DNA from: a phage
Reading direction: 5' to 3' (one strand)
Sequence record: PX441839.1
DNA: 64,000 nucleotides
Position numbers and translations under genes: made by a program
Notes under the pieces: model-generated
What the model saw: the letters and a program-made list of their open reading frames with translations, nothing else
Database searches by the model: none
Told to the model about the DNA's origin: nothing
Shown here: one piece after another, positions 1,859-63,904 of the stretch
Layout of the letters: each line of letters opens with the position of its first letter
How positions within the stretch are numbered: the stretch's first letter is position 1

Positions 1859-3346
1859 ATGGCTTCCAATTACGGCTTGACAAGCAGCGGATTCAACCTC
1901 CCGGCTCTTGATGACCTGACGGAGGAAACCAAGAAGGCTTTCCGCCAGGCTTTCGGAGAAAACTTCAATACCGGAAGTAACTCAGTTGCTGACAAGCTGA
2001 TCTACATTCTCAACGAGAGAGAATATCAACTTTATCTTTTAATGGCCTCTGTTTATTCTGCTCAAACAATGCAGGGTGCCGAGGGAATCTATCTTGACGA
2101 TTTGCTGGGTAAAAGAGGTATTTACCGCTTAGGCAAAACAAGAAGTACCGGGACAGCAGTTCTTACTGTTGACGCTTCCGTTCCCTACAATATGATCTAT
2201 AACGCTTCCAGTTACAGCATTGACGGTGGAAACTACGAACTGGCAACTGATGTTCAAGTAGCAGGGAACATCATAGCACAGGTGATCAGAGGAACTGATC
2301 TGGTTGTTGGTAATTATAGATTAACAATTCAAAACGTCAATGATCAATCTCAAAGGACAGTGACCCACAACCTCACCGCAACGAGCGGTGCCCCTCTGAC
2401 AGTTTTCTTTAACGTCATAAAAGATTTCATTGTCACAAACACCATTTTGTCCAACCAAGACCGAATTGTCATTGATTCGGTAGAGGGTGCCATCTACATT
2501 GGATACAACACCAGCAAGGAGATGATTGGACTTTCAAGCCGTGTTGATTTCAGAACATCACCGCTGGCAGGGAATAAGACAATCCTTATTGATGTAAGAT
2601 CGGTAGAGCCAGGTGCAATATCACGAGAGGCACACAGTATTAGGTCGATCTCTCCAACCCCTAGTGGTTTTGTTGCTATAGATAACCTGAGTGCATTTAC
2701 CGATGGTTCAGACGTAGAGTCAGATAACGAGTACAAGCTTCGTGGGGCCATGTCCGTTAACTCAGGGAAGGCAACCCGACCTGCTATCCTCTCTGCCCTT
2801 TTGAACGGAGTGGAAGGGATAGAGAAGGTTCGCATATTCAACAACAATACGGATAAGACTAACGCACTAGGTATCCCACCTTATCGCTTTCAGGTTGTTG
2901 TTTATGGTGGCACAACAGAACAGATCAGTCAAGTCCTTTATGATACGATAGCGGCATCTAATAATACCTTTGGTACAACTTTCCACGACATCACTACAGA
3001 GGATGACCAGGTGGAAAGAATATGGCACACAAAGGCATCAGAAAGAAGGTTAGCTATTCGAGTACGCTACAGAGGACGACCGTTGTCTATGACTGAGGAG
3101 ACAGCCATTGCAAACGGGTTGGTCACGATAGTTAACGGATCTAATATCGCAGACACGATCTACAACGTTCAGTTGGTAGGTACAGTAATGAGTTCCACAA
3201 CACCGGGTAGATTCACCCAAGTGTTTGTAGATATTAAGAATAAAGGGGCACCTGATTCGGAATTTGTAAACTCTGACATAACAGCAGGTGTTACCGAGGT
3301 ATTCAACCTTGAACCGGAAGATGTCCAGTTCAGCCAAGTTGTGTAA
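1859..3346 (+). CDS. Baseplate J-like protein
   Basis: 495 aa ORF in the baseplate J position; SD GGAGGAG upstream of the ATG. Confidence 0.45.
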   Translation: MASNYGLTSSGFNLPALDDLTEETKKAFRQAFGENFNTGSNSVADKLIYILNEREYQLYLLMASVYSAQTMQGAEGIYLDDLLGKRGIYRLGKTRSTGTAVLTVDASVPYNMIYNASSYSIDGGNYELATDVQVAGNIIAQVIRGTDLVVGNYRLTIQNVNDQSQRTVTHNLTATSGAPLTVFFNVIKDFIVTNTILSNQDRIVIDSVEGAIYIGYNTSKEMIGLSSRVDFRTSPLAGNKTILIDVRSVEPGAISREAHSIRSISPTPSGFVAIDNLSAFTDGSDVESDNEYKLRGAMSVNSGKATRPAILSALLNGVEGIEKVRIFNNNTDKTNALGIPPYRFQVVVYGGTTEQISQVLYDTIAASNNTFGTTFHDITTEDDQVERIWHTKASERRLAIRVRYRGRPLSMTEETAIANGLVTIVNGSNIADTIYNVQLVGTVMSSTTPGRFTQVFVDIKNKGAPDSEFVNSDITAGVTEVFNLEPEDVQFSQVV

Positions 3347-3354
3347 GGTGAATT

Positions 3355-4005
3355 ATGGCAGAAGAAGTAGATAACGTCACGGTGAAAGACGTTAACCACA
3401 TCCACCCTCTGCCCAATTTCGTCCAAGAGGGTATAGATTACATACCCTCTAATCTTTTCGAAGGAAAAGAAAACTTCCTTAAAACATTGACCATCTTTCT
3501 TGAAAGGCTGGAGAGCATAGATAAGAAGATGGTTGAGATGGCAGAAATGAGGACGATCCTCAATGCCGAAGGGGAGAACCTGGATGAGATAGGCAGACAA
3601 CTGGGGATCTTTAGAAACGGCCTCAACGACCCTGAGTACAGGGCAGTTATCATGATTCTTACAGGTAACAACTCTAAGAGTGGGACCAGAGCCGATATTA
3701 TTGCAACTTTGAAGCAACTATTCGGTGATGAGGGCGTTACAACATACAAGGGTCATAATTACAGGCTGGATATAAATATATTCAACACCTGTATGGAAGT
3801 CACTGACATACTTCCGCAAATATTGGATATGTTGCCCCTTGTCACCCACCTCCGAGTTGTAGAAAACAACGGATATCCTTTTGGGTTTGAGGGCGACAAC
3901 CAATCTTTTGGTTGGTCGTCAGTTTGGGATGAAAGGCCAACAGGCGCGGGTGGAATGGCATCACTGATCTATGTGTCCGATGATGAAGACCCTTTCTTTT
4001 CTTGA
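3355..4005 (+). CDS. Tail protein I-like baseplate component
   Basis: 216 aa ORF immediately after the J-like gene and before the tail fibre gene. Confidence 0.4.
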   Translation: MAEEVDNVTVKDVNHIHPLPNFVQEGIDYIPSNLFEGKENFLKTLTIFLERLESIDKKMVEMAEMRTILNAEGENLDEIGRQLGIFRNGLNDPEYRAVIMILTGNNSKSGTRADIIATLKQLFGDEGVTTYKGHNYRLDINIFNTCMEVTDILPQILDMLPLVTHLRVVENNGYPFGFEGDNQSFGWSSVWDERPTGAGGMASLIYVSDDEDPFFS

Positions 4006-4018
4006 GGAGATTTTATAA

Positions 4019-5509
4019 ATGGCTAAACCACGCAGCCAGCTTGTCGTTTGGGCAAGACAAGATGTTGCTTTGCCAAACACTGGCAGGATCAACAAAGTAA
4101 AACCTATTGATGACCTGTTGAATAAGGGTTATGATAAAGGTCAGAAGCCAGCGGCAGAAGAATTCAACTACATCTTGAACATGTGTACCGATTGGGTACG
4201 ATACATGCACGATGAGAAATTTCCAGAGTTTGAGAGGCAGATAGAAGAGAAGCTTGAAGCCTTCAAAGACGAGATGGAAAAGGAGATGGACAAGGTCCGT
4301 GGGGAAATGGACCAATTGGAAGCCTCTGTTAATAATAAACTGGCGGCTTTTGAATCTTACCTTGTTCCAGTAGGGGCGGTTATTGCTTGGCCCTCTACAA
4401 CAATACCGAAGGGTTGGTTAGAGTGTAACGGACAAGGTTTCAATATTGGTCAGAACCCCCGTCTGTATGCGGCACTCGGAAGAGGTAACGTACCGGATTA
4501 CCGTGGATTGTTCTTGCGAGGATGGGCACACGGTTCTGGTGAATATGATCCTGATGCAGGAAGGACTCTTGGCTCCATTCAGGGTGATGCCATTAGGAAC
4601 ATCACAGGTCGATTCGCTGCTGACCACGGTGAAACATGGATCATTGGTGCCTACAACGAGGGGGCCTTTTATGATGCAGGTGTTGCTGGGTCTGGTGACA
4701 AGGGCGGGAAGGCAAACGAAACCCGTCAGATCCGATTTGATGCCAGTCGTGTTGTACCAACTGCGCCGGAAAACCGACCTAAGAACATCGCAGTAATGTA
4801 CATCATAAAGGCAGATGCTGCAACGGCAACTGGTGGTAATGTCCCAACAGGACTGGAAGTGACACCTGAAACATTTGAGGGCCTTGTAGGTTCTACTTTC
4901 AGAGCCTCTGCTCAAGTTCTTCCAACGAACATGGCTCCTCAGTATCCTGTATCGTGGACCAGTCAAAACCCAGCAGTGGCAACTGTGGACGCCCAAGGTA
5001 ATGTAAGAATTGTTGGTCAGGGGACAACAAGCATTATCGCATCAATATCTTCTGGGATGAACTCTAGGATCTCCATTGTGGGTCACAAACCTCTTACTGG
5101 CCTCTCTATCGCCCAGTTTGAAAATTTAGAGGTCGGTGGGAGCATAAGGACGACTGTAGCAAGAATACCATCTGATTCAACAGAACCCTTAATCTTCTCC
5201 ACTGGCAACACAGGGATCGCCAACGTAACTCAAGATGGGGATGTTGTTGGGGTTGCAGAGGGAACAACTACCATTTCTGCAAGGGGTCGGTTCACAGGGA
5301 TAACTGCCAGAGCAAGCATAACCGTTGTTCCAGAAGAGGTTGTGACAACTGTTGAAGACATTATGCTGGGTATTGAACAGCAAGCTCCAAACGCTGCACC
5401 AAAAGGATGTGTAATAACATACGTCGATGGTGGTGAAAACATGGAGTATGTCAGATATAAGCCCATCCAGAAGAAGGTAAATGGGGTGTGGGTAACTATT
5501 GAGGGTTAA
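4019..5509 (+). CDS. Tail fibre protein with phage tail-collar domain and bacterial Ig-like (Big_2-like) repeats
   Basis: Motif VGAVIAWPSTTIPKGWLECNGQGFNIGQNPRLYAALG matches the tail-collar signature; C-terminal repeats such as PVSWTSQNPAVATVDAQGNVRIVGQGTTSIIAS look like Big_2. Confidence 0.7.
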   Translation: MAKPRSQLVVWARQDVALPNTGRINKVKPIDDLLNKGYDKGQKPAAEEFNYILNMCTDWVRYMHDEKFPEFERQIEEKLEAFKDEMEKEMDKVRGEMDQLEASVNNKLAAFESYLVPVGAVIAWPSTTIPKGWLECNGQGFNIGQNPRLYAALGRGNVPDYRGLFLRGWAHGSGEYDPDAGRTLGSIQGDAIRNITGRFAADHGETWIIGAYNEGAFYDAGVAGSGDKGGKANETRQIRFDASRVVPTAPENRPKNIAVMYIIKADAATATGGNVPTGLEVTPETFEGLVGSTFRASAQVLPTNMAPQYPVSWTSQNPAVATVDAQGNVRIVGQGTTSIIASISSGMNSRISIVGHKPLTGLSIAQFENLEVGGSIRTTVARIPSDSTEPLIFSTGNTGIANVTQDGDVVGVAEGTTTISARGRFTGITARASITVVPEEVVTTVEDIMLGIEQQAPNAAPKGCVITYVDGGENMEYVRYKPIQKKVNGVWVTIEG

Positions 5510-5511
5510 TT

Positions 5512-6027
5512 ATGAAGATGGAAAACTTTGAAGTTTACTCTCCAGAATTTAAAAGGTTTGGAGAGGGCGTCCAATATTTTAGGGATGCAGAAGGAAGAGA
5601 CTTCTATGAGAGTCGTGATCTTTTCACCAAGAAGTATTGCGTGTTCTACGACGAGCATGGGGTTGTAAGGGGTATCTGCAAATCAGTGGAGGTTACGAGG
5701 GGGAACCCTAACGGTCTATCTATTGCAGATCTCAACTCCTTGCCCAGAGGGTTTGAGATGTTCAAGGGTATCTGGAAATTCGACGGAAAGAGGATAATTC
5801 CTTGTGATTTTGACCCTGCCATAACAACCAAGATGCGGAAGGATAAGTTATTCAAAGCTCTTGCCTCACGACTTGCCCCTCTTCAAGATGCTGTTGAATT
5901 GGAGGAAGCCACAGAGGAAGAGACCTTGGAATATAAAAGGCTCCGTTCATTAAGGGTTAAGCTTCTCCGAGTCCCAGATGACGAGTCCCCTAGTAATGTA
6001 GCTTGGGAAGATTTCTCGGGTATTTAA
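5512..6027 (+). CDS. Tail fibre assembly chaperone (Tfa-like)
   Basis: 171 aa ORF directly downstream of the fibre gene; C-terminal LAPLQDAVELEEATEEETLEYKRLR resembles the conserved Tfa C-terminus. Confidence 0.55.
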   Translation: MKMENFEVYSPEFKRFGEGVQYFRDAEGRDFYESRDLFTKKYCVFYDEHGVVRGICKSVEVTRGNPNGLSIADLNSLPRGFEMFKGIWKFDGKRIIPCDFDPAITTKMRKDKLFKALASRLAPLQDAVELEEATEEETLEYKRLRSLRVKLLRVPDDESPSNVAWEDFSGI

Positions 6028-6067
6028 TAGCTGCCAGTGCCGACCCTGTCGGCACATAGGAGATAAA

Positions 6068-6406
6068 ATGATTCTTGATATAATGGCAGTTCTTAAAGCA
6101 CTCTGGGGATTTGCCACTTTTATTTTGTTGGGGATTCTCAAAATTACGTATTCTGACTTCAAAAAGATGCAGGAACGTCAGGACACTCTTGAGAAAGATA
6201 TTATCCGACTCAGGAGTGAGATGGTTACTAAGGACAGTCTTGATGATATTTTTGATCGGAAGATGAAACATATTCAAGACACTATCCAGGATATACGTGG
6301 GGATCTCGCAGACATGCGAGGAGAAACAAAGGACGAGGTTACTGCCTTACGTAATGAAATCAGGACTGTTTTGAATGTAGTTTTGGAGAGAAGCAACAGA
6401 CAATGA
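6068..6406 (+). CDS. Membrane-anchored coiled-coil protein (function unknown)
   Basis: N-terminal hydrophobic segment ALWGFATFILLGILKI followed by charged heptad-like sequence. Confidence 0.4.
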   Translation: MILDIMAVLKALWGFATFILLGILKITYSDFKKMQERQDTLEKDIIRLRSEMVTKDSLDDIFDRKMKHIQDTIQDIRGDLADMRGETKDEVTALRNEIRTVLNVVLERSNRQ

Positions 6407-6864
6407 TATCTTCCCTGTTCTACGGGATGTGCTTCCTGATTGTCCTTATGAACCCTTGCGTTCGTACAAAAATAATGGCGGGGCTATGCCTCGCCTATAT
6501 TGTAATAGAGAATATGATGCTTTGGTACACAATAACCAATGTTATCCATTTCGATATTACCCTTTATCATACCCTCGGGTGGATATTGGATTCAACTCTT
6601 TTGTTTGCAGTGGGTTGTGTTTTAAGAGGAAAGAGGCAGATCCTCATCATAGCTTCCGCAATACCCCTTATGGTGTCTCAAGTGTTAGCAATCCAATATC
6701 CTTCTATGTTCCCACCTGATGTATACCAGTGGGTAATTAAAGATGCTCACATGTATTTTATTGAGATGTTTATCTTCGCTCATTCTTGGAAAGACAACAC
6801 AGTAAAAGAGTGGTTAAAGACAGGAACAGTGTTGGGCCTTGTTGTTGCTGCACATTTAGTTTGA
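6403..6864 (+). CDS. Multi-pass membrane protein (function unknown)
   Basis: 153 aa with about four hydrophobic segments; start overlaps the upstream stop. Confidence 0.4.
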   Translation: MISSLFYGMCFLIVLMNPCVRTKIMAGLCLAYIVIENMMLWYTITNVIHFDITLYHTLGWILDSTLLFAVGCVLRGKRQILIIASAIPLMVSQVLAIQYPSMFPPDVYQWVIKDAHMYFIEMFIFAHSWKDNTVKEWLKTGTVLGLVVAAHLV

Positions 6865-43271: not shown

Positions 43272-44690
43272 TTATCGCTTCATTTGTGAAAATAAATATG
43301 TTTTAGCTACCTTCGAGATACGGCTACCAACATCCTTCATAGTTAACCCCGAAGTCTCCAGTGTATCGTACTCCTCCTTGTAGATATCTGAGTTAAGCCA
43401 CTTTAAAAATTCACCAACTTTAGGCCCAAGTTCAACAGGGTCTTCGCCAAATACCTCAGTAAGGGCTTGGTCTAGTCGAGATTTGGTTAAAGCATACTCA
43501 ACAAACTTCTCCACAGACTCCAACTTCTCAGGGTCAACCGTCGCCAGTTTCTTCACCTTTGAAGACGAGTGTTTTTCACCCTTAACCTTAAACCATGTCC
43601 CAGAGTTCTTTGCAAGTTCCTTCTTAAGGGGTTTCCATACAACACCCTCACCAATACCAGTCACCCCAAAGAACTTACCGATGGGACAAGCGTCTTCAAC
43701 CTGGGTGGTGATCTCTACAAGCCGATTTGTTGATTTTTCAGGGTCATTGAAGTCAATAACCTCAGTGAACCAGCCAAAATCCATAGCATTGTAGACCTTT
43801 ATATGCGGTGCAGAGAGAGCCATCATTGAAATTGTATTCGTCCACTTCATCCCTTGATTATCTCGACCAAAAGCCACACCAATAATCATGAATGTTCGCT
43901 CAAGCTCAGATACGGCAACGCCCTTTTGAATGCCCTTCCCCATCCACTCACCAGCAATTTCGATAGGGTATTCTACAGGAATGCCTTTGGATCGTGCAAT
44001 GAACTTTGCTTGCTCAAAAAGGTGCTCTACTTGGACAATCTTCTTAGCGAAGAATTCAGCAAACCCGTTGTTGTCTGACACCAAAGGTAACAGTTTACGC
44101 TCTTTACTTTGGAAAGCGATCTCTCCATCAGCGTACTGAACGAAACTCCCATTTGTTCCGTGGGCCTTTACCGTACCAATGTACACCTCTTTTGCATCCG
44201 AAGGCATAGGTTTACGAATGACGTTTCCATCCTCATCCACACCTCCAAATGTCAGAGTATTCTGAACATTCTTAACAACATTTCGGAATTGACCCGTGGA
44301 GGGGTATTTAATAGCTGATTTGTCCACAGGTTCAGACTGCATAAGGTCATGTTGACCGGATACGATCCGAGATTTTAATTCTTCCCACATTTCAACTAGG
44401 TCTTCACCCGTGACAACCTCTTGAACCTTTTCCCCAACCAACTTGTAGGCGCTGTTACGAGTAATTGCGTACAGTTCACCATCTTTTGCGGCAAATCCGC
44501 AAACATAGGATGTTCGGATATCCGAAGAATCTCGGAATCGATTCCCCATATCCTTTTCCAAATTACCAAAAAGACAAATTGCCTTACTTCCTTTCAATAG
44601 ACCTTCCGTGACAATACCGAAGTCAACACTACCTTCAACACGGAGTTCCCCACAATAGCGACGACCTTCAATAATCTTATCCAATTTCAC
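43272..44690 (-). CDS. ATP-dependent RNA ligase-like nucleotidyltransferase (Rnl2-type motifs) with about 170-aa N-terminal extension
   Basis: Motif I KAHGTN (K-x-H-G-T-N), motif III IAGEWMGKG, motif IV GEGVVWKP, motif V WFKVKGEKH. Confidence 0.55.
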   Translation of the reverse strand: MKLDKIIEGRRYCGELRVEGSVDFGIVTEGLLKGSKAICLFGNLEKDMGNRFRDSSDIRTSYVCGFAAKDGELYAITRNSAYKLVGEKVQEVVTGEDLVEMWEELKSRIVSGQHDLMQSEPVDKSAIKYPSTGQFRNVVKNVQNTLTFGGVDEDGNVIRKPMPSDAKEVYIGTVKAHGTNGSFVQYADGEIAFQSKERKLLPLVSDNNGFAEFFAKKIVQVEHLFEQAKFIARSKGIPVEYPIEIAGEWMGKGIQKGVAVSELERTFMIIGVAFGRDNQGMKWTNTISMMALSAPHIKVYNAMDFGWFTEVIDFNDPEKSTNRLVEITTQVEDACPIGKFFGVTGIGEGVVWKPLKKELAKNSGTWFKVKGEKHSSSKVKKLATVDPEKLESVEKFVEYALTKSRLDQALTEVFGEDPVELGPKVGEFLKWLNSDIYKEEYDTLETSGLTMKDVGSRISKVAKTYLFSQMKR

Positions 44691-45183
44691 TCTCCTTTAA
44701 TACATACACGGTAACATCCCAATGAGATAGATTTTTATCAATCATCTTAGAGATAATTTTCCAATCACCTCCGGCAAGACCTGCACCAAGCTTAGGTAAA
44801 CCCACCCGAAGTTCATTTTTTGGTACGTCCAATAAACGAACCTTTCCGTGAAGAGATGCGTTCATCATTTTTAAAGCCTTGTCTAAGGCATCATAATCAA
44901 GGTCCATCTTCCCCTGTTTACGTAACCACCAACCAAACTGACCGTAGAGGTTGTACACAAGGGTTGCGGATTCGAAGCAAAAAGCCTCTGTTATAGTCCC
45001 TAGCTTACCTTGATCACCCTTCTTTGTGTTTTGATCAACGTAGTAAGCCTCTGGAAATGATTTTGCAATCAAGGGAGCAATCCCAGATTTCATAGTGTTG
45101 AAACAATTGCAGCAGTGAGCGATAACATCCACCTCTTTGTCTTTAGCTGCCTGGATAAGATCACCAACCTTGTATTTTATCAT
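44677..45183 (-). CDS. Macro-domain-like protein
   Basis: VGDLIQAA...VDVIAHCCNCFNTMKSGIAPLIAKSF resembles the macro-domain N-terminal signature; weak motif-level call. Confidence 0.4.
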   Translation of the reverse strand: MIKYKVGDLIQAAKDKEVDVIAHCCNCFNTMKSGIAPLIAKSFPEAYYVDQNTKKGDQGKLGTITEAFCFESATLVYNLYGQFGWWLRKQGKMDLDYDALDKALKMMNASLHGKVRLLDVPKNELRVGLPKLGAGLAGGDWKIISKMIDKNLSHWDVTVYVLKESEIG

Positions 45184-50365: not shown

Positions 50366-51286
50366 TCATACCACCTTTTTCAAATTCTTAACCAGGTCTG
50401 CAACTGACAATCCAGTTGTTGTCACCAACTCATTAAGGGCATGAGCAGCCTTTTCTTCGGCAAACTTGAGATTACCTGCCTCAATTGCCTTGGATTTGTC
50501 CATAATAACTGGAGACATGTTCTCTGTCAACTCCTTACCAGTGATAAAGCAACGCTTCGCTCGATATGCCGCCTTGAAATGAGCAAAGGAGATTGTAATC
50601 TCGTGATTATGCTTTGCCAAGAAGCGCAGTAGTCCCGCATATCTCTCAGCAATGATCACATCATCAGGAACAGAATTAACAATAACCTTCTCTTTAGGTG
50701 TGGCAGACTCCTGGTCCTCGACCACCTTTTCAACTTCCACCTTGTGATCCCCTAATCCATGTAATGTAATAGTTTCTTTTTCTTCGTTACGAATTTCCAC
50801 AAGTTCACCCTCTTCGTTGATTGCATATTCAAAATCTGGAATATATTTAGTTTTCAGGTATTCCATGTGTTCTGGAGACATATGCTCAAACATGGCTTTT
50901 ACGTATCTTTGCTCACCAGCCTGGATCGTTGCCTTTCGATCAACCTTATCGATAAGCTGGTCCTTGAGTTGATTAACCCGTTGTATGGCAACACAGACAT
51001 TGCCACGGACATAGCCCTTTTTATCATCGATCCTTTCAAGTGTTGGGTGCTCAGACTGATGGATACTCCCAACAGGGAATGGAAGATCAGTGTAGTCGCA
51101 ATTCCCTCTACCACAGAGCTTTTCTGCCAACATTTTTATGTCAGAGAGAGTGAGCGTAAATTCCAAGCCCCTGTCGTTTGCCTCTTTTCTTTTACGAGCC
51201 ATTCGGTTACGAAGGTACTCGCCATCTTCTCCGAAGATTTGTACAAAGTGACTTGAGCAGAAATTTTGGTGGTCTAATATTTGCAT
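50366..51286 (-). CDS. Hypothetical protein (306 aa)
   Basis: Long ORF, no confident motif. Confidence 0.4.
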   Translation of the reverse strand: MQILDHQNFCSSHFVQIFGEDGEYLRNRMARKRKEANDRGLEFTLTLSDIKMLAEKLCGRGNCDYTDLPFPVGSIHQSEHPTLERIDDKKGYVRGNVCVAIQRVNQLKDQLIDKVDRKATIQAGEQRYVKAMFEHMSPEHMEYLKTKYIPDFEYAINEEGELVEIRNEEKETITLHGLGDHKVEVEKVVEDQESATPKEKVIVNSVPDDVIIAERYAGLLRFLAKHNHEITISFAHFKAAYRAKRCFITGKELTENMSPVIMDKSKAIEAGNLKFAEEKAAHALNELVTTTGLSVADLVKNLKKVV

Positions 51287-51366
51287 TTTTAAATTACCTT
51301 GTTTGCTTGATGTAGCTATAATACTCCCTGTTTACCCTGTTGTCAACATCTAATTTCCTTCGGGTC

Positions 51367-51876
51367 TCAATTTTCAACTTCCACACCACCCCTTAAGGTT
51401 ACACCAGCCTCTTCAAGGGTTCGGGCAGGGTCTGCATGTCGTCCCGTAAGACCACTGATCAACCGTTCAGTTTTCCTATTCAAAACCTCCCTTACAACCT
51501 CTGGATTGATCTTTGGCATACACTCTCGGCGCAGACGTTTAGATTCTTCGTAAGCATCATCAAGAACACCTTGGATTTTCTTTTCAACTTCCAAGGAATC
51601 CATAGCATCTTTACACACGCAAGTGTGTCCAACAACATCATAATCCCCGTGATAAATGTATGGTTGCAGAGGGAGACCCCTGTTTCCACAGTACGCACAA
51701 ATAGGGGTTCCTCCGTCCATAATCATCAGAGTCTTTTTGGCACCACATTGGGAGTTCCAGTGATAACGGAAGTCTTCTTTTCCACAGTATCCGAAGCGGA
51801 AGTAATCTTTTGCACGGTCGTCAACATACTCTGGATAATTTTTCATATTTGTTCCTCTCGTCATTTGATTCAGCAA
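51367..51876 (-). CDS. Cys-rich (possible zinc-binding) protein, first gene of the leftward unit
   Basis: CAYCG...HTCVCKD motifs; directly downstream of a consensus promoter. Confidence 0.4.
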   Translation of the reverse strand: MLNQMTRGTNMKNYPEYVDDRAKDYFRFGYCGKEDFRYHWNSQCGAKKTLMIMDGGTPICAYCGNRGLPLQPYIYHGDYDVVGHTCVCKDAMDSLEVEKKIQGVLDDAYEESKRLRRECMPKINPEVVREVLNRKTERLISGLTGRHADPARTLEEAGVTLRGGVEVEN

Positions 51877-51904
51877 TACTAATCTATACCTTGCCGCATG
51901 TCAA
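51876..51904 (-). promoter_or_regulatory. Sigma70-like promoter for the leftward operon
   Basis: On the minus strand: TTGACA, 17-nt spacer, TAGTAT. Confidence 0.5.
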
Positions 51905-51928
51905 ACAATATTTTAAAGCTTAAGTGTA

Positions 51929-51957
51929 TTGACACCTTAAGAATATTGTACAATAAT
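51929..51957 (+). promoter_or_regulatory. Sigma70-like promoter for the rightward island (divergent from the previous one)
   Basis: TTGACA, 17-nt spacer, AATAAT; AAGGAG SD and ATG follow at 51975-51988. Confidence 0.45.
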
Positions 51958-51985
51958 GTCGTCACACAAACACAAGGAGAAACAG

Positions 51986-52543
51986 ATGAATAAATTATCG
52001 CCAGAAAAACAACTTGCCCTTATGATTAAACTTGCAGCAGATGGGCATCTTGACCAGTTCGACAAAGGGGGTCGTCCTTATGTTCTTCACGTATTAAAGG
52101 TTATGCATTATCTCAAAGAGAAGAGTGACGATGAGCTTAATTGCATTGCGGTAGGACATGATTTACTAGAGGATACCTTGATGGACATGTTCACTCTACA
52201 AAATCTGGGATTCTCTGTCCGAGTTATCGATGGGATTGTACGTCTTACGAAGGTTTCATCTGATAATGATGTTTCCTACATGTATCGGGTCCTGGATAGT
52301 TTCGATGCTTGTCGCGTCAAGTTGGCAGATCTGCGACACAATACAGATATTCGCCGTTTGAAAGGTGTCCGAGAAAAAGACTTGAAACGTATGGCAAAGT
52401 ATCATAAAATGCACCTCAGCATCAGTGAGATGATCAAGTGGTATGAAGAAAACAACTTGAAAAATTACACTTACCCTGGGGATTACTTTACAGAAAAAGA
52501 TGAGAAAATTGAGGAGATTATGAATGCGTATAAGGGTGGTTAA
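51986..52543 (+). CDS. Small alarmone hydrolase (RelA/SpoT-type HD domain)
   Basis: GRPYVLHVLKV..., IAVGHDLLEDT and VKLADLRHN match the SpoT/Mesh1 hydrolase signature; start set to the ATG with a proper SD because the upstream ATG lies in the -10 box. Confidence 0.7.
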   Translation: MNKLSPEKQLALMIKLAADGHLDQFDKGGRPYVLHVLKVMHYLKEKSDDELNCIAVGHDLLEDTLMDMFTLQNLGFSVRVIDGIVRLTKVSSDNDVSYMYRVLDSFDACRVKLADLRHNTDIRRLKGVREKDLKRMAKYHKMHLSISEMIKWYEENNLKNYTYPGDYFTEKDEKIEEIMNAYKGG

Positions 52544-52677
52544 TGGACCGGAGGGGAGTCGGTTTTCTCCTGAGGTTTTGTACGAGGTTTACAACTTCTT
52601 TCCGGGGTTGAACAAAGCTTTCGTATTCGACGATAGTTCAGAGTCATATTTTCTTTGGGAATTGGAGTGGAGGGAAG

Positions 52678-52866
52678 ATGAAGGTTGAATTTGCAAAAAC
52701 ATCCGGTGGGTACTTGTCTGATGTAATCCATACAACTCCTGACTGGATTTGCCCCCGTAAAGGTGAGATTATTCATCTTAACGATAAAAACTGGAGTGTG
52801 GAACAAGTTTTCCATGAAATTGAAAGAAATTCCTTAATCATTTACGTTGAGGCTTGCTATGGGTAA
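52678..52866 (+). CDS. Hypothetical small protein
   Basis: 62 aa ORF with SD. Confidence 0.3.
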   Translation: MKVEFAKTSGGYLSDVIHTTPDWICPRKGEIIHLNDKNWSVEQVFHEIERNSLIIYVEACYG

Positions 52867-53392
52867 AATTACACACAGTTTTCAGTCGAAGTTTAGCTCC
52901 TATGTTGGAAAATTGAACTCTTGGGCACATCTGTGCGATGTTGGTGAGGATAAGGAGATACCAGAGGGCAAGGTGAAAATCACCTCCTTAGGTTGTCGGT
53001 TTGACAAGGTAGAACCAAAAGAGGTGTACTCGATCTGGGCGCTTCTTGATGCAACAGTCCCTGGTTGGAAGGGTGATTACCAGTTTGAATACTCGAGGGA
53101 TGAATTCCTAACCTGCTCTTGTGGTCATGGCGGGTGTGCTGGATACTTCAATGGTATACGTATCCACAAGAAAAAGAAAGCTTATCGGTTGACGGGTAAA
53201 AAGAAAGACGGTTATACTAAAGGTGTTGTTGGGACAGGGCATCAGGTGGTGTATCTGTCCCGTGAAGAGGTGGAATCAGTCCGAGATGAGTTCTTAGATA
53301 TGTTTAAAAAGGACCTGAATGGTATTTTCCAAATCAACGATATGTTCATCACTGGGGCATATGGCCTTAAACGTTGGGGGACCAAGAAGTGA
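52859..53392 (+). CDS. Cys-rich hypothetical protein
   Basis: CSCGHGGCAGY motif; internal ATG with GAGG SD. Confidence 0.4.
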   Translation: MGKITHSFQSKFSSYVGKLNSWAHLCDVGEDKEIPEGKVKITSLGCRFDKVEPKEVYSIWALLDATVPGWKGDYQFEYSRDEFLTCSCGHGGCAGYFNGIRIHKKKKAYRLTGKKKDGYTKGVVGTGHQVVYLSREEVESVRDEFLDMFKKDLNGIFQINDMFITGAYGLKRWGTKK

Positions 53393-54000
53393 AGCGTACC
53401 AAAAACATCAACAAATCTCGTTTTCGAAAATCTTTTACAGGTGCGGCGGTTGCAGTGGCATTGACGTTCTCCTTGTCTGCTTGTGAACAGGCAGATGAGA
53501 CAGTAAAATTCTACCAGAATGCAGAGGAGTGTGTCACTGGTGGAAATCCCGCTGAAACATGTAAATTGGCAGAAGAACAAGCAAAAAAGGTTGCTACAGA
53601 GACGGCCCCTCGGTTTGCGACACTTGAGGATTGCCGAGCCGAATTTGGAGACATGTGTCAAAACAATAGTTCAGGGGGGAATTCGGATTCCCCGTGGATG
53701 CCCTTGATGATGGGGTATATGCTTGGAAACATGATGAGCAATAACGGTAGCAACCACTACTACCACAACAGTTCCCCGATGTATAAGTCAAAATCAGGGA
53801 AGTGGATGGACAATAAGTTCAGGAGTTATAATGTAACACCTGGTAAAACGTTTAAAGTTACAAAGTCAGCGATCAATCCAAAGGCACAGGCACCAAAGAG
53901 TACAATCAGTGGAAGCAAAAAGTCATCTTCCTCTTTTAAGTCAACCACAACAACTCGGGGTGGTTTCGGTAGTTCAGTTGGCCGCAGCAGCGGCGGATAA
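53389..54000 (+). CDS. Putative lipoprotein (Ser/Asn/Gly-rich)
   Basis: GTG start overlapping the upstream stop; signal-like AAVAVALTFSLSAC with lipobox LSAC. Confidence 0.45.
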   Translation: MKRTKNINKSRFRKSFTGAAVAVALTFSLSACEQADETVKFYQNAEECVTGGNPAETCKLAEEQAKKVATETAPRFATLEDCRAEFGDMCQNNSSGGNSDSPWMPLMMGYMLGNMMSNNGSNHYYHNSSPMYKSKSGKWMDNKFRSYNVTPGKTFKVTKSAINPKAQAPKSTISGSKKSSSSFKSTTTTRGGFGSSVGRSSGG

Positions 54001-54013
54001 TTTGGAGGTTTTT

Positions 54014-54331
54014 GTGAAAAAGATTCAAGTAAATAATGTTTTGGCACCTCAGACGATTCTGGTTCTGGTTCAGAAAAATGTCGGTAAGTCAAATACATAT
54101 ACAACACTTTACCGTTCAAGTGAAAATAAGATTAGCCATAATGTTAAAAATTATTGGGGGAATGGGTGGGACTCATCATTTTCTAAATTCTTTGTACAAA
54201 ACTGGCATGAACATTGGCTACCAGTGGATATTTCGAATGAGAAGTTTACTCATGTATCTATCGTTCGACCAAATGACAAAACCCGCAAAATTAAGCGTTG
54301 GATTAAAAATGCAGCAAAACGATTAAAATGA
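54014..54331 (+). CDS. Hypothetical basic protein
   Basis: GTG start 5 nt after a GGAGG SD. Confidence 0.35.
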   Translation: MKKIQVNNVLAPQTILVLVQKNVGKSNTYTTLYRSSENKISHNVKNYWGNGWDSSFSKFFVQNWHEHWLPVDISNEKFTHVSIVRPNDKTRKIKRWIKNAAKRLK

Positions 54332-54389
54332 GTTGACTTGACTAAAAGGGGCGTGTAAAGTGCCCCTGTTATTTCAATAAGGAGAAGAT

Positions 54390-55610
54390 ATGACAATCAA
54401 AACATATGAACGAGTATCGCAGAGCGTATTTAAAAAACGAATTAACATCCGTCAAATGTACGATATGATGCTTCTTGGTAAAATGATCGGTAAGACTGTG
54501 TTCTTCTACGGCGGCGCTGGCCTTGGTAAGTCTCAAAAGATGCGCCAAGTAGCGGATATTTTGTTTCCGCACCGAATTGGGGATAACCTTGTCGATGTCC
54601 GGTTGTCCGATAAGGAACCCCAAGATATTGCAGGGATTCAGATCCCGATTGAACTGCCAGATGGGACTGCTCGCACCGTTTATGCTGTCCCTGACTTTTG
54701 GCCCACAGATCCAGATTGGGAAGGGATCATCTTTTTAGATGAACTTCCTAATGCTGGTCCGGCAACCCAGCAAAGTTCTTACCAAGTTGTTTTGGATCAT
54801 ATTGCGGGTAGTCATGTGTTCCCGAAGGGTGCTATTTACGCTGGGGCAGGGAACCGAGACTCTGACAATGGTAACACTCATGAGATCCTCGGTCCTTTAG
54901 TTAACCGAATGATGATGTGTGAGATTGATTATGACTTGGATATCTGGATCGAGGATTTTGCAATCCCTTTCCGAATCCACCCGATGGTTATTGGATTCTT
55001 AAAGAACTTTCCACATCATTTCTACACAGGTGATGTTGAAAACCGATCAACAGTCGTATTTGCCTCACCTCGTCAGTGGGAAACAGTCTCTAAGATTCTG
55101 TTTTGCCTGGATGAAAAACTGATCAGTACAGAGATTGCAGAGATCGCCATCTGCGGTTCAGTTGGAGAGGGCCTTGATACTGAGCTTCTGGCATACTATA
55201 AGAGAGCTAAGACTCTACCTGACTTGGAGGATATTTTCTCCGGTAAAGTTACCAAGCACAAGATCCCTCATGAGGATATGGATCTGGTGTATGTTCTGTC
55301 TCAGATTTCTATCCGTAAGATCGAAGATGAGATTATGAATAATAACATGTCAGATGAAGATGTTATTGAACGTGTTGGCAACTTCTTGACCTTCATGTAC
55401 GAAAACTACGGAAAGGAAAACAGAGATACCGTGATGGCAATGATCACCTCTCTCTTCCGAGCACCGACAGGGCAAACTCCAGTTCTTCAAATGAACCCTC
55501 GTCGCAGTAAAATGGGGCCGCTTCTCCGCAAGCGTACTCCAACAATGATGAAGGTGGTAATGGACTACATGACCCGTTACGGTTCAATCATGGCGGACTT
55601 TGAAAAGTAA
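54390..55610 (+). CDS. AAA+ ATPase (MoxR/CobS-like)
   Basis: Walker A GGAGLGKSQ, Walker B IIFLDELPNA, sensor-1-like AGAGN. Confidence 0.6.
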   Translation: MTIKTYERVSQSVFKKRINIRQMYDMMLLGKMIGKTVFFYGGAGLGKSQKMRQVADILFPHRIGDNLVDVRLSDKEPQDIAGIQIPIELPDGTARTVYAVPDFWPTDPDWEGIIFLDELPNAGPATQQSSYQVVLDHIAGSHVFPKGAIYAGAGNRDSDNGNTHEILGPLVNRMMMCEIDYDLDIWIEDFAIPFRIHPMVIGFLKNFPHHFYTGDVENRSTVVFASPRQWETVSKILFCLDEKLISTEIAEIAICGSVGEGLDTELLAYYKRAKTLPDLEDIFSGKVTKHKIPHEDMDLVYVLSQISIRKIEDEIMNNNMSDEDVIERVGNFLTFMYENYGKENRDTVMAMITSLFRAPTGQTPVLQMNPRRSKMGPLLRKRTPTMMKVVMDYMTRYGSIMADFEK

Positions 55611-55613
55611 TTG

Positions 55614-55641
55614 TTGACTTTGATTAATTGGCTATTAGAAT
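55614..55641 (+). promoter_or_regulatory. Possible sigma70-like promoter
   Basis: TTGACT, 16-nt spacer, TAGAAT, followed by a hairpin and T-run. Confidence 0.3.
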
Positions 55642-55683
55642 AGGGGTGTCCGAAAGGGCATCCCTTTTTTATTTGGAGGATAT

Positions 55684-57237
55684 ATGGATTTTGAAAGTAT
55701 CATGAGTGATGAAGAACTTACCCTTGCGAACAGTGTCGATGATGAGGCTAGGAAACTTCTAGAGGCAGCTAGTCTACAGCTTATGCGTTATCGACCTTTC
55801 TACGGCACTCTGCTTGCGTCTATGCCTGTGAAAAGGGCAACAGAGTGGTTGTCCACTATGGCAACAGACGGGAGGAACCTGTACTACTCTCCTGAGTTTA
55901 TCGCTGGTATGACTCCAGAGAGAAAACAAGCAGTTTTTAAAAGAATTGACTATCTACAAACAGATCCTAAAAAGAACAAGGAGTTGAAAACTTATATTGA
56001 TGTTTTCTACAGAAGAAAGACTGCAAGAGAGGTTTGCTTTGTGTTGCAACATGAAGTAAGGCACGTTGTTGCAGACCATGCTACTCGTGGCAGAGGTTTT
56101 GATCACAAAACTTACAACTGTGCAGCAGACCATTATATCAATACCGATTTGATCATTGTCCATTCCAAATCCAGTGATATTGGTCAAGCTTGGTTTCCCC
56201 TTGGCAGCAAAACAAAATGGGATCTGGACAAAGAGTGGGGATTCATGCACTACGCCCTCGCTGATTTTCGATTCCACGGTATGCATACGGAAGAGATTTA
56301 CGACATACTCAAGAAAGAGGACCAAGTAAAACTTATGGGCCTCAAAGGGGCAGACCAACACCAGGGTTCGAATGGGAAGATGGGTACTGAAAACCAAGAT
56401 CGTGCCAGTGATGAAGGAGATGGTGGGGAGGAACAAAAAGAAGGTGAATTGGGACAAGGTGACGTATCAGATGCATTGGGTATTGATGTCCATGCACAAC
56501 CTACCTGCTCCAGTGAACAAAAACAGGCCAATGATACAGTGATGAGACAGGCCATAGAGAATGCTGTCAAAGCTGCTGGGGCAGGTGCTCCTCCAGAGGC
56601 CCGTGAGTTCGTAGAGGAAGCAGGGAAGCCTAAAATAAATTACCTAAGGCTGATTCGTAGAACAGTCGAAAGAATGATGAAAGAGCACCTTTCTTATCGA
56701 CGACCAGCAAGACGTAGTTTTGGTCTTACGAAAGCATTGCGTCGTGGAGGGTACATTCCACGCAACCAGAGCGTCATCCTGCCTGGGAAGATTAAGGGTA
56801 AGACAATCCGCTGTCATATCGGTTTTGACGTCTCAGGATCGTTTACAGACGACCTGCTGGCACCAACAAGGAGGGAGATCTCCGGTCTGTGTGGACTTTA
56901 CGAAGACTTTGAGGTAACATTGTTTTGTTGGTCAACAAAGGTTGGCAACTTGGTTCGCTACACAAAGGATAACTTCCGAGCTATCAAGGATTACAAGATC
57001 CAAACAACGGGAGGGACTGATGTTAGATGTGTGTTCAATAAGCTAGATGAGTTGAAAGAACCAATTGATCAGGTGATCATCTACACTGATGGTGTGTTCG
57101 GTGATGTTTCCAAAGAGAAAGATTGGGCCAAGAAGTATGGTAACAAGACGCTTTGGGTGATCATCGACCGAGGTCGGAAGAAAGAATGGAAAGCTCCATT
57201 CGGTAAAGTTATTATGTTTGACAAATACTTAAAGTAA
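55684..57237 (+). CDS. vWA-domain protein with N-terminal HExxH region (partner of the AAA+ ATPase)
   Basis: HEVRH zinc-peptidase-like motif in the N-terminal half; MIDAS-like DVSGS in IGFDVSGSF in the C-terminal half. Confidence 0.5.
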   Translation: MDFESIMSDEELTLANSVDDEARKLLEAASLQLMRYRPFYGTLLASMPVKRATEWLSTMATDGRNLYYSPEFIAGMTPERKQAVFKRIDYLQTDPKKNKELKTYIDVFYRRKTAREVCFVLQHEVRHVVADHATRGRGFDHKTYNCAADHYINTDLIIVHSKSSDIGQAWFPLGSKTKWDLDKEWGFMHYALADFRFHGMHTEEIYDILKKEDQVKLMGLKGADQHQGSNGKMGTENQDRASDEGDGGEEQKEGELGQGDVSDALGIDVHAQPTCSSEQKQANDTVMRQAIENAVKAAGAGAPPEAREFVEEAGKPKINYLRLIRRTVERMMKEHLSYRRPARRSFGLTKALRRGGYIPRNQSVILPGKIKGKTIRCHIGFDVSGSFTDDLLAPTRREISGLCGLYEDFEVTLFCWSTKVGNLVRYTKDNFRAIKDYKIQTTGGTDVRCVFNKLDELKEPIDQVIIYTDGVFGDVSKEKDWAKKYGNKTLWVIIDRGRKKEWKAPFGKVIMFDKYLK

Positions 57238-63110: not shown

Positions 63111-63139
63111 TTGACAAGCGCCGCTATCGTCACCATAAT
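63111..63139 (+). promoter_or_regulatory. Sigma70 consensus-like promoter
   Basis: TTGACA, 17-nt spacer, CATAAT; AAGGAG SD and ATG follow. Confidence 0.55.
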
Positions 63140-63168
63140 ACAGACTCAAAAGCAAAGGAGGCCGTAAG

Positions 63169-63408
63169 ATGTTAACCAAAAATCAATTAGTTTCTGCCGT
63201 TAAGGGTACGAATGGCATTAGCCTTGATCAAGTTTACAAGGAGTGTCGGCGATACGGGAAGATCCGACACCTGGAGGATGTAGACCAGTCCGGCACGTTG
63301 GTAACATATGCCTACATTGAATACAAGTATCTTTCTTGGGAGTTCGAACTTGTAAAAGGTGAAGTTTTATCCGTTTCATGGAACAAAGAAAATAACTGGT
63401 CATTCTAA
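63169..63408 (+). CDS. Hypothetical protein
   Basis: 79 aa ORF with AAGGAGG SD. Confidence 0.4.
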   Translation: MLTKNQLVSAVKGTNGISLDQVYKECRRYGKIRHLEDVDQSGTLVTYAYIEYKYLSWEFELVKGEVLSVSWNKENNWSF

Positions 63409-63426
63409 AAATAATTGTTGACGTAT

Positions 63427-63454
63427 CGTTATGACCGTTTATAATAGCGGTCAT
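63427..63454 (+). promoter_or_regulatory. Sigma70 consensus-like promoter with operator-like inverted repeat
   Basis: TTGACG, 16-nt spacer, TATAAT; inverted repeat ATGACCG...CGGTCAT brackets the -10. Confidence 0.55.
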
Positions 63455-63491
63455 AGAGAAACGAAACACAATCCAAACAAAGGAAATAAAA

Positions 63492-63866
63492 ATGAAAAAA
63501 TCTATCATTGCCATTATCGCCGCAGTATCTTTTAATGCCAGTGCTTACACTGTAAACCTGAATGATCTTTCAAGTTGGGAAAACAACATGCGTGATCGCT
63601 TTTCGGTCCCGAATCAAATCAAGAAAAGTCAGGAAGTCTACTGTATCGCAGATCTGACTAATGAGATCACTGGTGAAATCACAAAGGGCAATAGCTTTAA
63701 TCTTTCCGGCCCTTACGAAATGCAGGGCGGGGATCGTGTCTACACTGAGCAGGACGAAACAGGATCAACCGTTGTTTATGTTAACCCTAAAACGGGGCGC
63801 GGTTCCATTTCCATGATGGACAATAGCCAGGTTATTGCAAGCGGAAATATTAAGTGTAAATTTTAA
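63492..63866 (+). CDS. Secreted protein (signal peptide)
   Basis: MKKSIIAIIAAVSFNASA signal-peptide-like N-terminus; Cys near the C-terminus. Confidence 0.45.
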   Translation: MKKSIIAIIAAVSFNASAYTVNLNDLSSWENNMRDRFSVPNQIKKSQEVYCIADLTNEITGEITKGNSFNLSGPYEMQGGDRVYTEQDETGSTVVYVNPKTGRGSISMMDNSQVIASGNIKCKF

Positions 63867-63875
63867 AAATAGTTG

Positions 63876-63904
63876 TTGACACCGATTAGAGAAAGTAATA
63901 TTAT
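63876..63904 (+). promoter_or_regulatory. Sigma70 consensus-like promoter
   Basis: TTGACA, 17-nt spacer, TATTAT; 5' UTR hairpin GGGG-AGTTGTT-CCCC then SD. Confidence 0.5.

Follow-up and report, generated by a model that had tools for sequence, protein, structure and literature searches.

An Aph1-type small alarmone hydrolase gene at a divergent promoter pair in a Vequintavirinae-type phage, a probable counter-defence against toxic alarmone synthetases

What would a phage gain from an alarmone hydrolase that comes with no synthetase? The question is raised by a gene in a 64,000-nucleotide (nt) stretch of phage DNA (sequence record PX441839.1; the whole stretch is here called the window), which encodes a 185-residue protein of RelA/SpoT homologue (RSH) type. 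An earlier note on this DNA had read the protein as a RelA/SpoT HD hydrolase without a synthetase domain and had offered two roles for it, degradation of (p)ppGpp, which would blunt the stringent response of the host, or neutralization of alarmone-synthetase toxin defences. The source is a Vequintavirinae-type myovirus: from 40000 to 64000 the window aligns to Salmonella phage SSBI34 (MZ520832) at 85.5% nt identity over 96% of the length, and beyond SSBI34 other phage records align to this part over short stretches only. We favour the second role. In our judgement the gene product is probably an active 3'-pyrophosphohydrolase that depends on divalent metal, belongs to the Aph1-like, adenine-specific branch and is made early as a broad-spectrum counter-defence against toxic small alarmone synthetases (toxSAS).

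The class of the protein is as the earlier note had it. There is one HD-type domain signal with its catalytic motifs and no synthetase domain in the 185 residues, and sequence, profile and predicted fold together confirm a stand-alone RSH-type small alarmone hydrolase (SAH) encoded by a real and intact gene. The metal-binding and catalytic residues H35, H58, D59, E62, D63, D115 and N119 are all present on alignment to Aph1 and Rel, each conserved in 49/50 to 50/50 of the homologues aligned. A degenerate or inactive HD site, with which the proposal of the earlier note would fall, is ruled out by this alignment and by conservation in the 50 homologues; the site is intact. Searched with phmmer against sequences of the Protein Data Bank (PDB), the protein matches 7SMG, which is Aph1, at E = 5e-15 and Rel hydrolase domains at about 1e-7. 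A profile of the 50 homologues gives 4e-34 and 120.6 bits to 7SMG, with the chains of Rel, SpoT, RelH, MESH1 and PaSAH all at or below 60.8 bits. The AlphaFold2 model (predicted local distance difference test (pLDDT), 93.1; predicted template modelling score, 0.90) is one all-helical domain. Foldseek ranks the four chains of 7SMG as closest to it (TM(target) 0.88–0.90, r.m.s.d., or root-mean-square deviation, 1.9–2.8 Å), followed by MESH1, PaSAH, RelH, Rel and SpoT, and the match probability is 1.00 to 7SMG and to all of these. The protein also matches PHROG 30929 (E = 2e-66) and PHROG 990 ('metal-dependent phosphohydrolase', E = 8e-53), while in NCBIfam long RelA/SpoT models are matched only weakly and in part, far under their cut-offs.

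The identity of the closest structure bears directly on specificity. Aph1, adenosine 3'-pyrophosphohydrolase 1 of Bacteroides caccae, cleaves (p)ppApp, its activity on (p)ppGpp being undetectable (PMC10083569), and has a six-residue specificity signature of D24, R96, D116, R119, K133 and Y134 (Ahmad et al. 2023, PMC10083569). Alignment finds all six residues in the phage protein, as D26, R101, D121, R124, K138 and Y139 (Table 1). The (p)ppGpp-hydrolase motif Q-x-R-K-S-G-x-P-Y here reads QFDKGGRPY. This motif and the complete signature therefore predict an adenine-specific enzyme, of (p)ppApp rather than (p)ppGpp type.

A (p)ppGpp hydrolase would serve the phage differently, early removal of the stringent-response alarmone keeping nucleotide pools and the synthesis of rRNA, tRNA and ribosomes high. 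The fold and catalytic motifs are those of Rel/SpoT hydrolase domains, some relatives are annotated 'guanosine-3',5'-bis(diphosphate) 3'-pyrophosphohydrolase', and cleavage of both nucleotides has precedent: ATfaRel, which shares the PbcSpo subfamily with the enzyme of phage PVP-SE1 (Jimmy et al. 2020, PMC7229694), degrades both ppApp and ppGpp, and among 12 purified Aph1 homologues, every one of which cleaves ppApp, just two showed modest ppGpp activity (Ahmad et al. 2023). The pocket argues the other way. D26 replaces the guanine-stacking arginine (R43 of TtRel), R124 occupies the space of the guanine carbonyl, and Aph1, with the same residues, shows no detectable ppGpp activity and gains it only on joint D24R/R119A mutation (PMC10083569). 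To Aph1, moreover, the profile scores twice as high as to any (p)ppGpp hydrolase. With both residues present and the scores so divided, we consider (p)ppGpp degradation unlikely, and the least likely role among those proposed; the stringent-response reading of the Vequintavirinae enzyme is better dropped. Because the adenine-specific signature is present, related genomes probably mislabel the enzyme when they call it 'ppGpp pyrophosphohydrolase', '(p)ppGpp synthase' or 'GTP pyrophosphokinase'. Public annotations of hydrolase-only homologues include 'GTP pyrophosphokinase', 'putative (p)ppGpp synthase', 'nicotinamide phosphoribosyl transferase', 'Sir2' and 'major head protein'; all of these are likely mis-annotations or the product of shifted feature tables.

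The segment that defines the Aph1 family, the C-terminal 53 residues Y90–E143 of Aph1 (Ahmad et al. 2023, PMC10083569), is covered in the phage protein, the phmmer alignment spanning Aph1 residues 11–142 and the profile alignment residues 4–147. The compact eight-helix protomer without helix 9, a trait of Aph1 itself and not of its 2,769-member family, is not matched, since a further helix is predicted at residues 164–184. In the AlphaFold2 model the extension (residues ~148–185) comprises the end of helix 130–155 and this additional helix, at high pLDDT, and on alignment it is conserved within the Certrevirus-like clade. Homologues fall into two length classes, 146–164 amino acids (aa), like Aph1 with 149 aa, and 182–193 aa; the present protein belongs to the longer. 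Judged by sequence and model, this C-terminal helix of ~35 residues appears to be the only departure from Aph1. With its eight helices, Aph1 has no counterpart of the C-terminal helix 9 of dimeric SAHs, and according to its authors it is this absence alone that lets it tetramerize (PMC10083569). The clade-specific helix may therefore change the oligomeric state.

The second role offered by the earlier note, neutralization of alarmone-synthetase toxins, is supported by homology, because a relative has been tested on co-expression. The PVP-SE1 genome holds a single match, gp220, with 54% identity over 155 aa (E = 8e-55), and it is indirectly, by this identity, that the present enzyme is linked to PbcSpo, where Jimmy et al. 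placed the PVP-SE1 protein. On co-expression the PVP-SE1 SAH neutralized all five toxSAS, CapRel, PhRel, PhRel2, FaRel and FaRel2, and phage-encoded hydrolases were proposed as a bypass of alarmone-based defence (Jimmy et al. 2020, PMC7229694). FaRel2, PhRel, PhRel2 and CapRel act via pyrophosphorylation of the tRNA 3' CCA end, and the SAHs ATfaRel and MESH1 strip the tRNA 3' pyrophosphate (Kurata et al.).

In the mechanism that we propose, host RNA polymerase would transcribe the hydrolase gene, the first of a rightward unit, from a consensus sigma-70 promoter; given that position, the enzyme would probably be made soon after DNA entry. It would remove the 3'-diphosphate of adenosine 3'-pyrophosphates, namely (pp)pApp, the product of toxic alarmone synthetases, and, as a probable further substrate, the 3'-pyrophosphorylated A76 of tRNA produced by toxSAS of the CapRel/FaRel2/PhRel type. 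An adenine-specific pocket would fit both. The outcome would be reversal of the ATP depletion or translation arrest that abortive-infection systems impose, by a counter-defence that is catalytic and broad in spectrum. By analogy with the tested relatives, catalytic neutralization of toxSAS products, (pp)pApp and probably pyrophosphorylated tRNA, would be the most likely role. More tentatively, the true substrate during infection could be RNA. Stripping of pyrophosphate from tRNA A76 would in that case make the enzyme an early counter-defence by tRNA repair, acting alongside an RNA ligase and a putative phosphatase encoded at 43272–45183, and the C-terminal helix might adapt the Aph1 core to a macromolecular substrate or change its oligomeric state. 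We found no published demonstration of a phage SAH acting by tRNA repair in real infection.

A different 3'- or 2'-phosphorylated target would make the enzyme an agent of metabolic reprogramming or of some other counter-defence; candidates are NADPH or 3'-phosphoadenosine-5'-phosphosulfate (PAPS), as for MESH1, pGpp or pApp, or a defence-system nucleotide. RSH hydrolases are promiscuous, and there are structures of MESH1 with bound NADPH and PAPS (5VXA, 9CHY); promiscuity of SAHs is also reported (PMC9765508), and the clade-specific C-terminal helix is without explanation. Against this, the complete Aph1 signature is strongly conserved, ppApp was cleaved by 12/12 Aph1 homologues, and the PVP-SE1 homologue does neutralize toxSAS. 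We regard such a target as quite unlikely.

Aph1 and ATfaRel, the closest characterized relatives, serve as immunity or antitoxin proteins for a toxin carried alongside, Aph1 for the MuF-fused (p)ppApp synthetase Apk2 and ATfaRel for FaRel, and the phage enzyme could likewise protect against a toxin of the phage itself. The genomic setting speaks against it. The gene is monocistronic-first at its promoter in this phage, CR3 and SSBI34, gene order being conserved in the latter two without a toxin gene, and just 0.4% of Aph1 homologues adjoin MuF genes (Ahmad et al. 2023). Pfam and PADLOC found no RSH synthetase or toxSAS in the neighbouring open reading frames (ORFs) at 50366–51846 (-) and 52524–57237 (+), the rest of the window and genome being unscanned; no PADLOC model was matched. 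Because these neighbours hold neither an RSH synthetase domain nor a PADLOC match, we take an antitoxin or immunity role of the Aph1/ATfaRel type to be inapplicable here and give it very little chance; a stand-alone counter-measure fits better.

Comparison with individual relatives sharpens this picture. Aph1 is the best match by sequence, profile and fold, has the same catalytic residues and all six signature residues, and is likewise phage-encoded. It is only ~30% identical, however, and is a 149-aa, eight-helix tetramer, whereas the present protein has ~35 extra C-terminal residues with a predicted helix. In a temperate phage, the Aph1 gene adjoins that of the cognate toxin, MuF-Apk2; the hydrolase gene here stands by itself as the first gene behind a promoter, in a phage genome of Vequintavirinae type. 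PVP-SE1 gp220 comes from the same phage subfamily and the same divergent junction and shares the catalytic residues and five of the six signature residues, but at 169 aa it lacks most of the C-terminal extension, has G at the position of R101 and is encoded second in its unit, not first. Two further proteins are likened by description. ATfaRel, the PbcSpo SAH antitoxin of a Cellulomonas marina FaRel module, is a stand-alone HD hydrolase with catalytic toxSAS detoxification and type IV antitoxin logic. The PaSpo SAH of Salmonella phage SSU5 is also phage-encoded and stand-alone and neutralizes all tested toxSAS on co-expression, and it is in routine use to detoxify CapRel and FaRel2 when these are purified; it differs in belonging to another SAH subfamily (PaSpo) and to an unrelated phage. 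The dimeric SAHs (MESH1, Pseudomonas aeruginosa SAH and Corynebacterium glutamicum RelH) and the Rel/SpoT hydrolase domains share the fold and the HD/ED/D/N constellation, but they have at least nine helices, one of them C-terminal, score no higher than 60.8 bits with TM 0.6–0.65 and r.m.s.d. 4–7 Å, carry a guanine-binding arginine where the phage protein has D26, and act on (p)ppGpp.

Early expression is plausible from the sigma-70-type promoter and from neighbours that look devoted to host takeover. The earlier note had placed a pair of divergent consensus promoters beside the gene, and these are borne out by a consensus scan (11/12 rightward, 10/12 leftward; Table 1) and by conservation in SSBI34; the hydrolase gene is indeed the first to the right of the rightward promoter. 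The distance of ~50 bp that it gave to the promoter of a long leftward operon holds approximately, the -35 boxes being 24 bp apart and the -10 boxes ~70 bp. The operon does not hold, since the leftward genes (13232–51846, -) contain at least eight further consensus promoters and form a gene block rather than one operon. Sites scoring at least 11/12 number 12 in the whole window, compared with 1.1 ± 0.9 in 40 dinucleotide shuffles, and are perfectly sorted by strand, all those on the minus strand lying at or below 51346 and all those on the plus strand at or above 51929. The sign of the GC skew flips at ~52000, the same point as this strand switch. SSBI34 keeps 24/24 bases of the four hexamers and both 17-nt spacings, with diverged spacers (~5/17 identical in the rightward promoter, for example). 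Shuffle test, strand consistency and conservation in SSBI34 together rule out chance promoters. At the equivalent junction PVP-SE1 and rV5 each have an annotated sigma-70-type promoter, both on the side of the leftward, Srd-like gene. The 24 bp between the -35 boxes (51905–51928) are A/T-rich (ACAATATTTTAAAGCTTAAGTGTA), with a core, TATTTTAAA, conserved in SSBI34, and may be an UP-element-like region common to both promoters.

Two other views of the gene were rejected. A longer ORF of 195 aa from the ATG at 51956 is unlikely, because that codon sits in the -10 region and the N termini of homologues align at MNK; it also has no ribosome-binding site. A horizontally acquired 'moron' of foreign composition does not fit a GC content of 0.41, the same as that of the neighbours, or a junction that is syntenic across the subfamily.

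With tblastn, homologues were found in 274/50,697 phage records. Those of the Certrevirus phages CR3, CR8, CR9 and phiTE are 57–67% identical and those of Seunavirus and Klebsiella phages ~52–54%; others occur in T4-like Aeromonas phages and streptococcal prophages. The SSBI34 counterpart, a 'RelA/SpoT family protein', shares 91% aa identity. The slot to the right of the junction is variously filled (Table 1). In phiTE the slot holds a protein annotated as a single HNH-hydrolase fusion, whose N-terminal 231 aa match HNH endonucleases. Presence in some phages and absence from others, at an early junction that is itself conserved, is what accessory or counter-defence genes typically show.

Several points weigh against the favoured account. 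The equivalent of R101 is kept in no more than 21/50 homologues, with G taking its place in PVP-SE1 and CR3; this residue, R96 of Aph1, is the sole one of the signature away from the Aph1 active site. The predicted specificity is itself read from the signature. The sole Pfam match is a weak one to HD_4 (PF13328; 13.7 bits, E = 0.054) that does not reach the gathering cut-off of 27.2, so that it is the profile and fold matches to PDB entries that place the protein in the SAH class; for some of its close homologues a PF13328 match is precomputed. The rV5 junction is without the hydrolase gene, which is therefore dispensable for the subfamily. The PVP-SE1 assays were plasmid co-expressions, gp220 being the presumed construct. 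The early timing is deduced from promoter and neighbours. Finally, a literature search returned no biochemical or genetic report on this protein, nor on any phage SAH during actual infection, and nothing usable on Vequintavirinae transcription timing or CapRel sensitivity.

The favoured role matters in that enterobacteria genuinely defend themselves against phages by means of toxSAS such as CapRel. A hydrolase undoing their product would be a broad-spectrum, trigger-independent escape device and could affect the host range of phages, for instance in therapy cocktails. The family, its occurrence in phages, the counter-defence hypothesis and the PVP-SE1 co-expression test (2020) are already published, and close relatives already carry RelA/SpoT-family or metal-dependent phosphohydrolase annotation. 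As the concept was proposed and co-expression-tested in 2020, the present locus contributes little more than one further member of the family and a promoter context that is clean.

Table 1. Features of the hydrolase gene, its product and its surroundings. Positions are those of the window unless another genome is named; conservation refers to the 50 aligned homologues.
Feature	Position	Strand	Evidence or remark
Coding sequence of Aph1-type small alarmone hydrolase, 185 aa, with no domain beyond the RSH HD hydrolase	51986..52543	+	ATG to TAA; sequence, profile, fold
Shine-Dalgarno AAGGAG of hydrolase gene	51973..51978	+	7 nt 5' of ATG; kept in SSBI34
Codons of H58-D59-L-L-E62-D63 (HD and ED catalytic motifs)	52157..52174	+	invariant in 50/50; aligned to Aph1 and Rel enzymes
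C-terminal extension, residues 148–185	52427..52540	+	absent from Aph1 and ~150-aa homologues; predicted helix 164–184
Signature residue D26			Aph1 D24; conserved in 49/50
Signature residue R101			Aph1 R96; conserved in 21/50, variable
Signature residue D121			Aph1 D116; conserved in 50/50
Signature residue R124			Aph1 R119; conserved in 50/50
Signature residue K138			Aph1 K133; K or R in 49/50
Signature residue Y139			Aph1 Y134; conserved in 50/50
Rightward sigma-70-type promoter, TTGACA-17-AATAAT, 11/12	51929..51957	+	consensus scan; predicted transcription start near 51964
Leftward sigma-70-type promoter, TTGACA-17-TAGTAT, 10/12	51876..51904	-	consensus scan; back-to-back with rightward promoter
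Slot right of junction: this phage, SSBI34, CR3			hydrolase gene first
Slot right of junction: PVP-SE1	2476-3977 (compared locus)		gp219 (PHROG 'thymidylate kinase', no Pfam match) precedes hydrolase gene, 37-nt overlap
Slot right of junction: phiTE (NC_020201)	2805-4046 (compared locus)		phiTE_055, 413 aa; hydrolase domain annotated as its C-terminal half
Slot right of junction: rV5	5703-6787 (compared locus)		different gene, gp010; no homologue among tblastn matches
54-aa ORF, overlaps hydrolase stop by 20 nt	52524..52688	+	PHROG 15304; same overlap annotated in SSBI34
MoxR-like ATPase gene	54390-55610	+	PHROG 1297; after DUF1190 ORF
Terminator-like hairpin, strong, intrinsic type	55642..55665	+	10 bp stem and T-run; 3' of MoxR-like ATPase gene
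159-aa Cys/His-rich protein with CxxC-type motifs, first gene of leftward block	51367..51846	-	ATG 51846; GAGAGG ribosome-binding site
306-aa protein	50366-51286	-	PHROGs 'Srd anti-sigma factor', 'decoy of host sigma70', HNH endonuclease

To the right, four head-to-tail ORFs follow the hydrolase gene with overlaps of 11–20 nt (52524–52688, 52678–52866, 52847–53392 and 53374–54000, the last with DUF1190), and the first of them is likely to be translationally coupled to it. The hairpin beyond the MoxR-like ATPase gene is the probable end of the rightward unit. The ATPase gene and one for a DUF2201_N/DUF2201 protein, a putative metallopeptidase with a VWA-like domain, lie one after the other at 54390–57237 (+), a pair conserved in rV5-like phages.

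To the left, the 159-aa Cys-rich protein matches PHROG 13698 and 11258 only, both of them function-unassigned families. The 306-aa Srd-like protein is a homologue of rV5 gp011 and PVP-SE1 gp218. Its gene has its own 11/12 promoter at 51346–51318 (-), and a second 11/12 promoter at 50530–50502 (-), within the Srd-like coding sequence, is directed at the next small genes. From their family matches, the surroundings of the hydrolase gene read as a host-takeover neighbourhood.

No tRNA genes were found in the window. The genes at 43272–45183 (-), ~7 kb from the hydrolase gene, encode an RNA ligase-domain protein (PF09414, a 472-aa ORF) and, directly after it, a 168-aa product whose homologue in SSBI34 and CR8 is annotated 'putative phosphatase'; the two may work as a pair in RNA (tRNA) repair. 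Combined with an enzyme able to take off 3' pyrophosphate, such a pair is a hint that one phage carries several RNA-repair counter-defences. Near the right end of the window, three sigma-70 consensus promoters of at least 11/12 stand within 800 bp at 63111–63904 (+; 63111, 63418 and 63876), which suggests that short early genes, each with a promoter of its own, are clustered there.

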